A stretch of DNA of 64,000 nucleotides from Eledone cirrhosa. Taxonomy: Eukaryota. Below are positions 4,471 through 61,623 of the stretch, piece by piece. Positions within the stretch are counted from its first letter, which is position 1; each line of letters begins with the position of its first letter. The stretch lies in contig OZ024748.1 of assembly GCA_964016885.1 (NCBI GenBank), positions 22,506,001 through 22,570,000 of the forward strand, given 5' to 3'. The notes beneath the pieces were generated by a model. That model made no database searches. It worked only from the letters and a program-made list of their open reading frames with translations, and was not told where the DNA came from. The position numbers and the translations under genes were made by a program.

Positions 4471-4849
4471 ATCATATATATGTATGTATATATATATATA
4501 TATATATATATAAATATGTTTGTGTGTGCATATATTTTGTCTTTTCTAATATAATTATAAATACGCAGACACTCGAGCATATATATATATATATATATAT
4601 ATATATATATACATACATACACACACACACACACACATATATATATATATATATATATACATATATGTGTGTGTGTATGTATGTATGTATATATATGTGT
4701 GTGTGTGTGTGTGTATATATAGGTATGTATGTATATATATATAATATATATATATATATATATATATATATATATATATATATATATATATATATATATA
4801 TATATATATATATATATAATATATATATATATATATAATATATAAGGTT

Positions 4850-4900
4850 AGTTTCAGAAGATCCCGTTAAGGGTGAAAGCAGCGATTCTTTGCTTAAACT
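4850..4900 (+). ncRNA. Hammerhead-like motif F2 with CAGAAGA core (copies on minus strand at 7574-7624 and 31890-31940)
   Basis: agttt-CAGAAGA-t ccc gttaa ggg t-GAAA-gca..tgc-TT-aaact; all three stems pair. Confidence 0.6.
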
Positions 4901-7326
4901 TTAATCTGTTATTTTAATAAATATATATATATATATATATATATATATAAACATTATATCTGAGTGTCTTTGTATACATAATTATAAAATGTAAAATGTT
5001 AAGGCCGCACGTATTGAGTACGATACGAGAATCCGTCCAAATCTATGCCCGTAGTTTCAACATCTCATTCAGTTTGCACCTTATTAATTATTCATTGATA
5101 TGCATGTCTAATGTTGTTACTGCAGAACATCGGTCCGTTATTGTATAATGTTCATTCTAACAATGTGCAACGTAATGGAGAGCTGCATATTGATTTACTT
5201 ATTCAACACGCATACATGCTTGCAAAAGACGTGGTTCGGGATGTACAATGCATTATTTATGACTCCATGTTGGTCCTGCAAGCATGCGATGACGAGCTAT
5301 AGCTTCTGAATACATGCACCGATATAAATGCTATCACATATCCATTTGTTCCTCACATATTTATACACACATACGTACTCATGCTTATAGACAAGTTGCC
5401 TTGTATGATACATATATACATGTGAATTCCATGACTACATTGACACATACACACACACATATATATATATATATATATATATATATATATATATATATAT
5501 ATATATATATATATATATTTATATATATATATATATATATTTTTATATATACATACATGTATATATATATATATATATTATATATATATATATATATATA
5601 TATATATATATATACACACACATATATATATATTATATATATATGTATGTATATATAAATATATCTATATATATTATATATAAATATATCTATATATATT
5701 ATATTTATTTATTTATATATATATATATACACACATACATACATATATATATATATATATATATATATATATATGTGTGTGTGTGTGTGTGTGTGTGTGT
5801 GTGTGTGTGTGTATATCTTTTATATACAAATATATATATATATATATATATATATATATATATATATATATATATATTCGTTGATATTAAATTACATTAA
5901 AAATAATATACAGTTGCTGATAAATATACAGATAAATTCCCTGACTTACACCTGTAAATACAATAGTATATGTAAGAGGGGTAGGTTAATATACATATGA
6001 TTAATTTGAGACGAAGGGGGCGTAGGGAGAGAATACCAGGAGGGAAGAGTGAACCGATGAAAAGGATTAGAACATTTGCAGTAGGATCTAACGTAAATAC
6101 ATGCGTGTACACGAATGCATGTTGCAACATATTCCAGTGTACATTTACCGAAATAGAATCAAGTTATGATAAAAGCAAAAAAATATATGTAGGTGCATGC
6201 ATGATTATATAATATAAAGAAATAATATATAGACAAATTGATATATATATATATATATATATATATCAATTTGTCTATATATTATTTCTTTTTTTTTTTT
6301 TTTTTTTTTAATTGAGTTTGAATTATTTTTCCACATCTTACGTTAATTATTTTCCATTTTGACGTTATAGTCACTTATATATTATGAAATACTGTTGGCT
6401 TCACGCTCACAATAATTTCTATACTTTCATTTATATATATATATGTATATATATATATATATAATGTAGGAGGTGAGTTTTATTGTAGTACAATAAAGCA
6501 ATGCAGATATCGGATAAGAAGCACTCTACAGTTTGTAGGACTGGAGTATACATAATATAAGATCAAAAGATGGTTAAAGGAATTCCATGTATTTTATTAT
6601 GCGCATAATTTTTTTGAAATGCGCATAATAAAATACATGGAACTCCTTTAACCATCTTTTGATCTTATATTATATATATATATATATATATCAGGAACGA
6701 TCGACTTTCGTCAAATCGGACCGAGGAAACAATGCTTCCATTGGTCTTTCCAATTGCTAGTACTATCTATCGTTCGCAACTCCAGGTAGAAGGAGCAACG
6801 TGAAATAAAGTGTCTTGTCCGGGGATCGAACTCACCATCTCACGATTGCGAATCCAATTCTCTAACCACTCAGCCACACGCCTTCACATCATATATATAT
6901 ATACATATATATATATATATATATATATATATATATATAGAGAGAGAGAGAGAGAGAGAGAGAGAGAGAGAGAAAGAGAGAGAGAGAGAGAGAGAGATAT
7001 ATGAAAAGAGTCAGGACCCCGACGGCTGAGGTCCGGCGCGGTGTCAATAGCTAGATCCGAACTAAGCCACACTTTCTTTGTTATATATATATATATATAT
7101 ATATATATATATATATATATATATATATATATATATATATATATATATATATATATATATATATATATATATATATATATATATATATATATACGCTATT
7201 CCGGGTTGAATCGGAGGTAACCACAGTAAGTAAGGAACTCAATACATTGCAGAGTATAAAAGTTTTAATAAAGATGAGATTCTACAGGACTAGAACTGTT
7301 TCATTCTTTAGAAATCACCAGGAATC

Positions 7327-7370
7327 TCCTGATGATTTCTAAAGAATGAAACAGTTCTAGTCCTGTAGAA
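7327..7370 (+). ncRNA. Hammerhead motif F3 within a 107-bp palindrome
   Basis: CTGATGA-t ttc taaa gaa t-GAAA-cag ttctagtc ctg-TA-gaa; a degenerate homolog with fold-back at ~28145-28230. Confidence 0.68.
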
Positions 7371-8322
7371 TCTCATCTCTCTCTATATATATATATGTGT
7401 GTGTATATGTTTTTCGAATATTAATAATAACATTCGATTCGTTTGCAAAATTTATATATATATATATATTTATATATATATATATATATATATATATATA
7501 TATATATATATATATATATATATATATATATATATATATATATATATATATATTTATTAAAATAACAGATTAAAGTTTAAGCAAAGAATCGCTGCTTTCA
7601 CCCTTAACGGGATCTTCTGAAACTAACATATATATATATATATATATATATATATATATATATATATATATATATATATATATATATATATATATATATA
7701 TATATATATATAAAACAAAGAGGGTGTGGTAAGATACTAGGTGGACCATAATGCACCAGAGTACTCGATTCTTAGCGTAGTAGAGTGGGTAATACGGAAA
7801 GAGTCAGGATGCCGACGGAGGCCAGTTCAGCCCCCACCCCCACCCTCACACCCACCACTATAGTATTTGTGAGTAACATCGTTTGACAAATTTTCCGCTT
7901 TTCTAGCGACCACCCTGTATATATATATATATATATATATATATAATAACTAGAGATTGATTAACATATAAATAAACATGAATAATCACAGGAGATCATT
8001 TTTACAAGTGTGTAACCACACATAGCTAGGTAGGTAACTAAATAAAGTTGACCAGAACTTAAAAAATGTCTTTCTGGCATGACACCCATAATTTTGATTT
8101 AGATTAAATTCATTTGATTTATCTTAATTTTGTATATATATATATATATATATATATATATATATATATATATATATATATATATATATATATATATTCG
8201 ACGGACTTCTGTACAGTTTCCGTGTGCGAACTTTGATTCGTAATATATTAAATAGACCAAAGTTATAGTGAAAGAAAAAAAGACACTCTCCTAGGTTACC
8301 ACGCATTATGACTGAACCTGTA

Positions 8323-58720: not shown

Positions 58721-58829
58721 CACTTATTTATATATAGAGGGAGAGGGGAGGAGAGAGAGACATACACACATATATATAAAGATAAAGAAGGAGAGAGAGA
58801 CACACACACGCATACAGACACTCCACAAG

Positions 58830-60490
58830 CCACACATACAGACACACCGTACAGACACGCCGTACAGACACACACATACAGACACACCGTACAGACACAC
58901 CGTACAGACACACCGTACAGACACACACATACAGACACACCGTACAGACACACATACAGACACACCATACAGACACATCGTACAGACACACCGTACAGAC
59001 ACACCGTACAGACACACCGTACAGACACACATACAGACACACCATACAGACACATCGTACAGACACACATACAGACACACCGTACAGACACACCGTACAG
59101 ACACACATACAGACACACCATACAGACACACCGTACAGACACACATACAGACACACCATACAGACACACACATACAGACACACCATACAGACACACCGTA
59201 CAGACACACCGTACAGACACACCATACAGACACACCATACAGACACACCATACAGACACACCGTACAGACACACCGTACAGACACACCATACAGACACAC
59301 CATACAGACACACCATACAGACACACCGTACAGACACACCATACAGACACACCATACAGACACACCATACAGACACACCATACAGACACACCGTACAGAC
59401 ACACCATACAGACACACCGTACAGACACACCGTACAGACACACCATACAGACACACACATACAGACACACCATACAAACACACCGTACAGACACACCGTA
59501 CAGACACACCATACAGACACACCATACAGACACACCATACAGACACACCGTACAGACACACCATACAGACACACACATACAGACACACCGTACAGACACA
59601 CCATACAGACACACCACAAGTCACACTGTACAGACACACCACAAGACACACCGTACAGACACACCGTACAGAGACACCATACAGACACACCACAAGTCAC
59701 ACCGTACAGACACACCACAAGTCACACCGTACAGACACACAGCACAGACAGACCGTACAGACACACCACAAGTCACACCGTACAGACACACCGTACAGAC
59801 ACACCGTACAGACACACCGTACAGACACACCATACAGACACACCGTACAGACACACCGTACAGACACACCGTACAGACACACCGTACAGACACACCACAA
59901 GACACACCGTACAGACACACCGTACAGACACACAGTACAGACACACAGTACAGACACACCGTACAGACACACCACAAGACACACCGTACAGACACACCGT
60001 ACAGACACACCATACAGACACACCGTACAGACACACATACAGACACACCGCACAGACACACCGTACAGACACACCGTACAGACACACCGTACAGACACAC
60101 CACAAGACACACCGTACAGACACAACGTACAGACACACCACAAGACACACCATACAGACACACCACAAGACACCGTACAGACACACATACAGACACACCA
60201 TACAGACACACCGTACAGACACACCGTACAGACACACCGTACAGACACACCGTACAGACACACCATACAGACACACCGTACAGACACACCGTACAGACAC
60301 ACCGTACAGACACACATACAGACACACCGTGCAGACACACCGTACAGACACACATACTGACACACCGTACAGACACACCGTACAGACACACCGTACAGAC
60401 ATACATACAGACACACCGTACAGACACACCGTACAGACACACCGTACAGACACACATACAGACACACCGTACAGACACACCATACAGACA
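58830..60490. repeat. 13-bp minisatellite acagacacaccgt / acagacacaccat
   Basis: More than 100 imperfect copies. Confidence 0.95.
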
Positions 60491-61527
60491 CACGGTACAG
60501 TGTGTGACTATCAGAGAAATAGTCTGCTTCTCACTTCCGGCACCATTTTATCGACATCAAAGATTTTGCAGTTATTGGGTCATTGGTGATTGTCTGAGTC
60601 ATAAACACAAGGAATTTACGACAAAACTTTTAATGATTGATGACCAATCGGAATACAGTTAAGAAAATTAGTTACATCAACTGTAGAGACACGTGTATAC
60701 ACACACTCACACACACACACACACACACACACACTCACATGTATGTATATATATATATGTATATATATATATATATTATATATATATTATATATATATAT
60801 ATATATATATATATATATATATATATATATATATATATATATATATATATATATTATATATATATATATATTATATATATATATATTATATATATATATA
60901 TATATATATATATATATATATATATATATATATATATATATATATGTATGTATATATATATATATATATATATTATATATATATATATATATTATATATA
61001 TATATATATATATATATATATATATATATATATATATATATATATATATATATATATATATATTATATATATATATATATAATATATATATATTATATAT
61101 ATATATATATATATACATATATATATATATATGTATATATATATAGATAGATATATTTCTTTATTTATTTATTTATAGATAGATAGATAGATAGATAGAT
61201 AGATAGATAGATAGATGTAGATATATACACATATAGACATATTTATATATATATATACACATATACACATATTTATATATATATATACACATATTTACAC
61301 ATATATATAAGCAAAGGCATATTTAATTTGTTGGTAATTCAACAAATATATATATTTATAATTGATTCGAAGCACTCGACAGATTTTTCTGGAGTATAAT
61401 ATCAATGATATTAATAAATGGAAACTATATTTATAAATATGGTTTCATAAATATAGTTTCCATTTATTAATATCATTGATATATATATATATATATATAT
61501 ATATATATATATATAGGAACGAGTAGG

Positions 61528-61623
61528 ACCCCGACGGCTGAGCTCAAGCCGTTTCGACGGCTAATTCTGGACTAAATGAACATTTTTATCCTGGTATTTG
61601 AATAGCCGAGCTTCTCAAGGGGT
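61528..61623 (-). ncRNA. Type I hammerhead ribozyme, U3:A8 core variant, at the PLE 3' end (family F1)
   Basis: Minus strand: acccc-TTGAGAA-gctcggcta...tagccgtc-GAAA-cggc ttgagctca gccg-TC-ggggt. Stem I acccc/ggggt, stem II cggcta/tagccg, stem III cggc/gccg, GUC site. Confidence 0.78.

Follow-up and report, generated by a model that had tools for sequence, protein, structure and literature searches.

The complex islands between the (TA)n arrays of the window (the whole 64,000-nucleotide stretch of Eledone cirrhosa DNA analysed here) are most probably 3′-end pieces of at least 12 hammerhead-bearing retroelement families inserted into (TA)n, likely made as run-off cDNAs by enzymes of Hydra-clade Penelope-like elements (PLEs) that would also copy two protein-free repeats, families A and C. 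Most of these micro-insertions are stubs of longer RNAs with set boundaries, two 3′ ends and one 5′ end being fixed, a feature missed by the preliminary description of this sequence. That description had counted at least eight unrelated families in 64 kb, which the present tally bears out. Its diverse TA-targeting, ribozyme-bearing PLEs are substantiated by families E and B, in which walking upstream reached RT and GIY-YIG ORFs, and its non-autonomous, retrozyme-like units by the closed, ORF-less families A and C.

Using a strict descriptor for type I hammerheads with a CUGANGA core, we identified three matches in the window (31764 and 32737 on the minus strand, 33207 on the plus strand), against none in 30 local dinucleotide shuffles serving as control. 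A wider type I descriptor admitting C3G8, U3A8 and U4 variants, with a score threshold chosen knowing the window matches, returned 7 window motifs versus 3 across 20 shuffles, and 54 motifs in 680 kb elsewhere versus 2–4 per shuffle. The predicted motif excess thus holds in the window and in the 680 kb, and so does the predicted TA enrichment: (TA)n lies within 200 nt downstream of 45 of the 54 motifs outside the window, against a background of 13.7%. Complete-motif density in the sample is about 80 per Mb, or roughly 2 × 10^5 if extrapolated. Complex flanks recur in 128/438 cases at TA, compared with 2/68 at CA, 2/37 at TG, 0/16 at GA and 0/36 at TC, and a family end abuts 81/616 TA arrays versus 3/126 CA and 2/88 GA arrays. 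Of the TA arrays of ≥16 bp, no fewer than 13% are involved, a fraction that simple-repeat masking would conceal.

Compensated stem changes, likewise anticipated, were found in a related family, where 6 of 13 pairs changed on both sides (19 cells; reached in 0/500 shuffles), on a basis of 2–3 subfamilies with 3 of 12 rows from a single locus. The 150 of 458 Rfam matches listed for the window included no hammerhead, only simple-repeat miRNA matches, and at four loci nothing reached gathering level. An open three-way junction was the minimum-energy fold in 0/11 window stretches, two of which end before the core, and monomeric folds gained no backing from this prediction. A scan of block orders yielded 31 type I matches and 6 others, with 2, 1 and 5 others in shuffles. 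Type-SGC permuted hammerheads (block order S-G-C; PMC10085705), searched as intact-core forms, were absent from the window and matched once in 680 kb (1, 0 and 2 in shuffles); the window families were not assigned to that type.

We compared 48 complex islands of 40–600 bp lying between TA arrays with a library of hammerhead-plus-tail sequences. Matches were obtained for 28, or 26 once two SINE matches are subtracted; only 4 of these 26 hold a complete motif, and most islands consist of the 3′ half or tail alone. Many islands (26/48) therefore do belong to hammerhead families, but the earlier statement that many contain cores was too broad. A similar correction applies to the 12 sites that had been listed as complete or near-complete. 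Seven pass the descriptor: three in family B, with core CAGAAGA (4850, 7574 and 31890), two in A (32662 and 33201), and one each in C (31726) and E. The E site, cited at 61528, actually has its core UUGAGAA at 61618 on the minus strand, 90 nt away. The other five are decayed or clipped copies of real families: 7327 (D) combines an arm whose stem I is clipped with one that has an A6G core; 46994 (F) has GAGA for GAAA, which 6 other distinct copies retain; and older families have left decayed copies at 17347 and 15158 (H and H-like) and at 44728 (G), of which 15158 adjoins a TTC repeat rather than TA. Among six proposed half sites, 28495 and 30921 come from families with a full core in other copies. 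The remaining four are weaker: 54301 belongs to a family in which no standard core was found, 15806 and 47507 each have two matches, in which the core is decayed, and none of the sampled loci is related to 49789.

Judged by their sequences, families E and B are the 3′ ends of Hydra-clade PLEs, represented in the window as follows:

61516..64000, minus strand: E, 5′-truncated Hydra-clade PLE with 3′ UTR, short 3′ end into TA
62727-64000, minus strand: E coding part (RT pieces and GIY-YIG frame), running beyond the window
Core 61618, minus strand: E hammerhead, U3-A8, found by descriptor; predicted cut 61533/61532
32461..32597, minus strand: E stub, long 3′ end, hammerhead 3′ half only
12842..13033, unstranded: E inverted stub pair, one long and one short arm
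47139..47340, unstranded: E inverted stub pair, one long and one short arm
49467..49667, unstranded: E inverted stub pair
12508..12756, unstranded: two diverged E-like stubs carrying the hammerhead 3′ half
7706..7818, minus strand: diverged E-like tail
4847..4920, plus strand: B stub (Hydra PLE end), complete motif, U4A core at 4855
7554..7627, minus strand: B stub, core at 7619
31874..32035, unstranded: B inverted stub pair, core at 31935 (minus strand)

The E hammerhead 3′ half lies 1155–1290 nt downstream of the endonuclease at 21/30 loci, and an E tandem shows five cores spaced 3531 bp apart with a unit identity of 3530–3531/3531. The E protein (P0001) is a single 784-codon frame combining an RT (YRDD) with a C-terminal GIY-YIG endonuclease (VIY..YIG); it has 2215 homologs and no Pfam family match, and intact 784-codon Hydra frames are abundant in the sampled genome sequence. 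It carries RWR (homologs: RWK in 85/120, RW[KR] in 115/120), DKT instead of DKG (DK[TS] in 119/120 homologs), a CxCx5C linker, and CxxC and CxH around the E and N residues, and lacks CCHH; two cysteines between GIY and YIG occur in 0/120 homologs. The clade assignment of E follows from these motifs, with published reference proteins compared by eye, and from the position of the hammerhead close to the 3′ end and the (TA)n target, TA following 45/55 stub ends. The 3531-bp unit exceeds the <3 kb that PMC8557442 gives for Hydra elements with the qualifier "generally", that is, as a tendency. Assignment of E to Naiad PLEs, whose endonuclease is N-terminal and carries CCHH, was rejected on the C-terminal endonuclease and the absence of CCHH. 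For B, the endonuclease was located upstream at four loci (L081, L083, L085 and L142).

Families A (522 nt) and C (438 nt) are, at the level of sequence organization, closed ORF-less units of the non-LTR retrozyme type. Their window copies are:

32607..33156, minus strand: A, 550-nt arm exceeding one unit and ending in the short 3′ end; hammerhead complete, core 32737
33152..33457, plus strand: A inverted arm, long 3′ end; complete hammerhead, core 33207
31591..31776, minus strand: C, complete hammerhead, core 31764
7406..7448, minus strand: C tail fragment

All 98 distinct A segments fit one 522-nt circle, with 40 exceeding 530 nt and the longest reaching 2019 nt, and 52 C segments fit a 438-nt circle. 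GC content is 36% in A, which runs to 3.9 head-to-tail units, and 38% in C, which reaches 1.4; the longest ATG frames span 76 and 84 codons, respectively. Each unit has one type I hammerhead with a canonical core and three stems. Short head-to-tail units, GC below 45% and lack of coding capacity, all features of non-LTR retrozymes, are present in both families. Two consecutive complete hammerheads in tandem, the criterion of Li et al., were found for A; among 30 C loci no copy with two complete tandem cores was seen. Contigs from three runs of unspecified kind contained the A head-to-tail joint and loose TA ends; start and strand were unreadable in them, and we gave them no weight.

Further hammerhead families occupy the following positions:

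7194..7383, unstranded: D inverted stub pair whose 5′ ends coincide with the predicted transcription start
28123..28280, unstranded: diverged D-like inverted pair
46879..47071, minus strand: F stub, GAAA mutated in the window copy
44680..44790, minus strand: G, old family (72–87% identity among matches), hammerhead decayed
17262..17480, minus strand: H, minimal hammerhead with tail, decayed
15150..15200, minus strand: H-like minimal hammerhead, decayed, at TTC repeat
6464..6670, unstranded: K inverted pair, hammerhead 3′ half; absent from the preliminary list
32330..32422, unstranded: K pieces
13096..13243, unstranded: tails of one more hammerhead family, inverted (recurring at 61356-61478)
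27867..28023, unstranded: inverted tails of another hammerhead family
28470..28545, minus strand: hammerhead 3′ half; other copies show the full core
30877..31036, minus strand: 3′ half and tail; U4C core in the family's other copies
12135..12181, minus strand: fragment of a tandem unit of 476–496 nt with hammerhead, recurring at 48150-48197; match to locus L068 made by eye

Family D showed no tandem period within 1.5 kb at 20 loci, nor did an ORF lie immediately upstream. Several core variants that would be expected to weaken catalysis have been amplified, including C3-with-A8 in 10/38 E matches, U4A throughout B and A6G in many D copies.

The insertion ends are alike in the coding and the non-coding families. 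In E, B, A and C, the 3′ end takes one of two fixed positions 3′ of the predicted cut site, with TA immediately after (the 3′ ends of A and D were taken as BLAST ends, the references having indels). Among inverted pairs with both ends intact, a long arm is joined to a short one in 24 A pairs (2 are long plus long), 7/7 B pairs and 5/5 C pairs, together 36/38; the E pairs are long plus short in 37/37, about 22 of them selected by a query of that shape. The shared pair of 3′ ends and the short/long pairing thus indicate Penelope-type mobilisation. That Penelope pieces and protein-free repeats have such fixed ends in common suggests that one enzyme type inserts both.

The 5′ ends are also concentrated. 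Within −45..−35 fall 40/55 E ends, and within −47..−37 fall 13/17 unselected D ends. Counted from a boundary base that was picked after the pile-ups were known, a TATAWA box lies 29–33 nt upstream in D, F and N (background 0.46%); E has only a relaxed TATA match (background 1.6%), which the window's own E subfamily lacks. No TATA match was found in B, whose 5′ ends are broadly spread (13/31 within −52..−38). In A and C, 21/98 and 10/52 ends, respectively, fall in the first 32 nt behind the cut site. Run-off copying likely accounts for the pile-ups, which in D, E, F and N follow a TATA-like box by about 30 nt and in A and C come just after the cut site; the insertion ends likely record positions at which RNAs start or are cut.

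The following sequence of events probably accounts for these patterns. The endonuclease would nick both strands of a TA array, and each strand would prime RT at a different one of two internal RNA sites, aided by the shared TAT, after which the two cDNAs would be joined head to head. Most cDNAs would end after only 55–200 nt because the priming sites lie close to the RNA 5′ end. The stop would correspond to a transcription start about 30 nt behind the TATA-like box in D, E, F and N, and to the end produced by hammerhead cleavage in A and C; full-length or multimeric copies could arise by priming in a downstream tandem copy or on circular RNA. Any hammerhead crossed by a cDNA would have to be uncut in that template, so the ribozyme would be a passenger in the insertions, without a role in choosing the TA target. 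For an anole PLE in vitro, two internal RT start sites, extension of both strands and uncut RNA as main template have been described (PMC11167929). We hold more tentatively, at slightly less than an even chance, a fuller model in which a dimeric Hydra enzyme primes the strands at two fixed sites and copies coding elements and hammerhead circles alike, leaving some 10^5 stubs whose 5′ ends map, base by base, the starts (TATA plus initiator within or just before the ribozyme) and the in vivo cuts.

The same elements could be at work with 5′ pile-ups that arise where RT stalls on structured RNA or where ends are joined through TA microhomology, and not at RNA ends, a reading we regard as rather unlikely. 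Every pile-up lies in or beside a hammerhead, several A ends fall on ATAT, the D ends behind the cut site begin at +10 next to TATAT, and B has no TATA match, all as stalling or microhomology would have it. Nevertheless, the stop places differ structurally: E stops in loop II, D at the 5′ edge of stem I and F about 45 nt 5′ of the core. In addition, arms of unequal length share one stop place, and four families have the TATA-like box 29–33 nt upstream, F showing it in two diverged copies. Expansion of the entered TA arrays by the elements, proposed earlier, finds no support and appears very improbable: seeded arrays are slightly longer (median 33 versus 25 bp, p=0.004), but their mean of 38 bp stays below the 42.7 bp expected from target size alone, longer arrays being larger targets.

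Two further alternatives concern A and C. An insertion by another TA-targeting enzyme, a Naiad-type PLE or a LINE, seems improbable. Naiads share the (TA)n preference, tails and inverted copies, PMC8557442 lists them in cephalopods, and within the candidates scored neither A nor C was connected by sequence to a Hydra element. However, the same source describes cephalopod Naiads as long-inactivated remnants, whereas A copies look young (95–99% alike) alongside the abundant intact Hydra frames; two internal 3′ ends with long-plus-short pairing would not be expected of a LINE. It is more doubtful still that A and C are duplicated pseudo-LTR pieces of unsampled autonomous PLEs. Because a D-like arm is joined to a Hydra ORF in locus L346 (a D-like variant, not D itself), short families can have coding parents, and since each genome search scored 40 of 1400–1900 candidates, there is room for a rare autonomous parent. 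Against this, the A/C tail is continued directly by what lies upstream of the next hammerhead, none of the segments extends into shared outside sequence, copies run to 3.9 units, and A relatives at 68–82% identity are likewise circle arcs, with a 530-nt period in locus L136. Retrozymes probably copied by Hydra-clade enzymes remain our reading of A and C.

Targeting of (TA)n and hammerheads are already published for Hydra-clade PLEs (PMC8557442, section 11). As described there, EN+ members including Hydra-1_Obim (Craig et al. 2021) resemble E in the C-terminal GIY-YIG, RW[KR] and DKT, the CxCx5C linker, the absence of CCHH, and CxxC and CxH; the 3′-near type I hammerhead, (TA)n insertion, inverted 5′-truncated copies and one-ended tail are likewise shared with the present families. 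A comparison by eye separates E from Hydra-1_Obim as a family of its own, longer (3531 bp) and having a U3-A8 core together with a long stem II, and the strict long-plus-short arm rule, fixed 5′ stub ends and TATA-like boxes set our families apart from that account of the clade.

Like the metazoan non-LTR retrozymes reported by Cervera and de la Pena (2020, PMC7229834) and Li et al. (2026, 10.64898/2026.07.22.740005), for which PLEs have been proposed as mobiliser, A and C are non-coding head-to-tail units with one type I hammerhead and GC <45%. In contrast to retrozymes as presented in these sources, they are mostly dispersed arcs of 0.1–2 units without long arrays, and target (TA)n with PLE-type double ends and inverted arms. 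The support for PLE mobilisation given in the two papers is co-occurrence and pLTR similarity, not insertion anatomy. Our results touch on the enzyme that spreads animal retrozymes, the origin of PLE tails and inverted copies, and in vivo cutting by PLE hammerheads. With young retrozymes and intact Hydra elements sharing one insertion anatomy within a single genome, the RNA sites, target and enzyme class for a direct assay are named.

In the green anole element PAc Poseidon (Frangieh et al. 2024, PMC11167929), two RT start sites downstream of the hammerhead define the tail, and both target strands are extended from uncut RNA, as the insertions suggest here. Poseidon belongs to another clade, and its start sites are described without target homology or strand difference, whereas here TAT is common to both ends and the array, and each arm uses a different one of the two sites. 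The PLE minimal hammerheads of Cervera and de la Pena (2014, PMC4209133) offer a further parallel: a genome holds many such families, their motifs are mostly single and truncated, and opposite-strand pairs, a palindromic stem III and the U3-A8 variant occur. Compared with the motifs described there, the present families are distinguished by family-wide U4A, U4C and C3-with-A8 cores and very long stems II.

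Hammerhead motifs beside TA arrays are a real feature of this window. A strict type I descriptor returned 3 matches in the window and 0 in 30 shuffles, while a wider descriptor (cores C3G8, U3A8, U4 variants and C3A8), its threshold chosen with the window matches known, returned 7 versus 3 in 20 shuffles. From the 3.0-Gb genome, whose SINE has a cephalopod-like look, we took an independent, non-random sample (68 pieces of 10 kb each, cut from large contigs at round coordinates), which contained 54 complete motifs, some being two arms of a single insertion, versus 4, 2 and 2 in three shuffles. 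(TA)5 or longer occurred within 200 nt downstream of 45 of these motifs, versus 13.7% of 12,811 background positions, bearing out the excess over shuffled sequence and the enrichment at (TA)n proposed in the preliminary description. Among complex flanks, 128/438 at TA arrays recurred in families (including a few SINE or LINE tails and low-complexity stretches), versus 2/68 at CA, 2/37 at TG, 0/16 at GA and 0/36 at TC arrays; a hammerhead-family end adjoined 81/616 TA, 3/126 CA and 2/88 GA arrays. The association is specific to TA. Seeded TA arrays are no longer than predicted from target size, so the suggestion that the elements expand them is unsupported.

Features in and just outside the window:
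62727-64000, reverse strand: end of a Penelope-like element (PLE) ORF
61618 (core): family E hammerhead with U3-A8 core and long stem II, at the end of the PLE 3′ UTR
19300-23070, forward strand: broken ORF with Rep and helicase motifs seen in the sequence, presumably Helitron-like
45130-46650, forward strand, and 53000-54150, reverse strand: decayed LINE-like RT fragments seen in the sequence
1130-1730, 8330-8760, 25490-26450 and elsewhere: ~190-bp SINE-like repeat in many copies, some in inverted or nested pairs
2400-3080, 28870-29110, 36000-42500 and 55000-60500: minisatellite arrays of various unit lengths
L021:3450-6000, reverse strand, just outside the window: LINE-type open frame of at least 850 codons

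The sites first listed held up in part. Seven of the 12 called complete passed, the other five belonging to real families but being clipped or decayed; two of the six half sites belong to families whose full core occurs elsewhere. A search for permuted hammerheads with an intact-core descriptor gave no match in the window. Non-repetitive islands between TA arrays, many of them said to carry hammerhead cores, belong to hammerhead families in 26 of 48 cases (after dropping two SINE matches; the ~190-bp repeat contaminated hammerhead-library matches), with a complete motif in just 4. Stem covariation was likewise recovered, in one related family: among 12 copies chosen on core and stem III alone, 6 of 13 pairs carried double-sided changes, reflecting few subfamilies, and their 19 cells were reached in 0/500 shuffles and compared with at most 2 in slid controls.

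Family E is an autonomous PLE. A hammerhead 3′ half lies 1155-1290 nt downstream of the endonuclease in 21/30 loci, including the window's own; it is mutated in 3/30 and absent within 1.5 kb in 6/30. Where copies are intact, they lie head to tail in arrays of 3531-bp units that agree at 3530-3531 letters, with 784-codon frames. The protein possesses RWR, DKT, CxCx5C, CxxC and CxH and lacks CCHH, a set common to most of 120 homologs. These motifs define the Hydra clade, for which an octopus member is listed and canonical hammerheads with (TA)n insertion are already reported (PMC8557442, section 11). The U3-A8 core is a PLE variant described in PMC4209133. In family B (core CAGAAGA), the hammerhead follows a related endonuclease at a distance of ~1 kb in L081, L083, L085 and L142, and a truncated Hydra ORF is capped by a D-like arm in L346. 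The PLE families here are new members of a known clade whose targeting is known.

Families A and C are closed non-coding units. A 522-nt circle accounts for all 98 distinct family A segments, 40 of which exceed 530 nt (longest 2019 nt) and none of which continues into shared outside sequence; the 52 family C segments behave similarly on a 438-nt circle. Sequences related to A at 68-82% identity likewise form arcs of a circle, and flanks revealed further short periods of 310, 469-496 and 591-595 nt. A and C, whose longest coding frame is at most 84 codons, fit non-LTR retrozymes (PMC7229834; 10.64898/2026.07.22.740005); for these retrozymes, co-occurrence and pLTR similarity led to the proposal that PLEs mobilise them. 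A rare coding parent of A or C may exist in the genome, and could be missed with just 40 candidates scored per search. Short tandem hammerhead units of 310 nt, 591-595 nt (U3-A8 core) and 469 nt were seen at L194, L154, L044 and L184, and L068:150-1500 holds three of 476-496 nt, each with an inner TA stretch of differing length.

Every family tested exhibits two fixed 3′ ends. Counted from the predicted cut site, those of E fall at +20 (60 copies) and +100 (56 copies), each closing in TAT common to the array; BLAST ends place A at +61 (36/98) and +178..184 (45/98), C at about +143 and +180, and B at about +29 and +120. Inverted arms with both ends intact (clipped pairs excluded: 12 in A, 1 in B, 7 in C, 3 in E) combined a long with a short end in 24 family A pairs versus 2 long+long, these two being one locus counted twice, and in 7/7 B and 5/5 C pairs, together 36/38 versus half expected (p = 3e-9). 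Family E gave 37/37, about 22 of which came from a query with this same arrangement. This anatomy matches the PLE tail, shown in vitro to span the stretch between two internal sites at which RT starts; there both strands are extended, mainly from uncut RNA as template (PMC11167929). Our families add a rule, each arm using a different one of the two sites. Among the papers listed by searches on this anatomy in retrozymes and on cephalopod hammerheads, we found no description of it. As a variant of known systems, the protein-free units that carry PLE insertion anatomy, the pairing of long with short arms and the stub ends linked to TATA render open mechanistic questions testable.

The 5′ ends are position-fixed in both arms, falling within -45..-35 in 40/55 family E copies, -47..-37 in 45/59 D copies (13/17 unselected) and -52..-38 in 13/31 B copies. 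TATAWA starts 30 nt upstream of the boundary in D and in family N (absent from the window, known from flanks), and 29 and 33 nt upstream in two diverged F copies; a relaxed match lies 29 nt before it in E and one D variant (background 0.46% strict, 1.6% relaxed). Neither kind precedes the boundary in B or the window's E subfamily. The boundary base, picked after the fact, sits in an initiator-like context. Short stubs would arise by run-off of cDNA at a transcription start inside the pseudo-LTR, and the D, E, F and N ends are predicted to mark such run-off. The Drosophila Penelope promoter also lies in the pseudo-LTR but is TATA-less (PMC2377424). A rival reading is that these pile-ups reflect TA microhomology or structures at which RT stalls. 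Unselected D copies, anchored on the tail, fall into two groups: 9 have their 5′ end at -40 or farther upstream and 10 have it at +10..+38, with the interval between them empty. In A and C, the 5′ ends instead concentrate within 32 nt after the predicted cut site (A 21/98, p = 4e-7; C 10/52, p = 0.004, assuming no selection by the search), as would be expected had the ribozyme made the template's 5′ end.

Two results weigh against this reading. Minimum-energy folding did not yield the open junction, and cores expected to be weak are amplified in the genome, which fits the low activity that has been reported for PLE hammerheads. An E subfamily (L092, L095, L098, L101, L110 and others; 10/38 matches) places C3 opposite A8; this is expected to disrupt the 3-8 pair, but the subfamily is amplified and ORF-linked. 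Family B carries U4A, many D copies A6G, and a family at window 30877-31036, L211, L232 and L233 a conserved U4C. At 54256-54481, a GAAAC-palindrome-GUC half-site family lacks the standard core in 5 loci, with a lone CUGACGA nearby on the opposite strand. By eye, the family G motif at 44680-44790 resembles the Hydra-1_Obim hammerhead given in the PMC8557442 supplement. Family H ends (L331-L344) often enter (CA)n or mixed CA/TA repeats rather than pure TA. A segmental array of ~12.4-kb units at C1:349.32-349.48 Mb (L006-L010, L024, L025), which inflates copy lists unless removed, contains family A copies and a second Hydra-type ORF.
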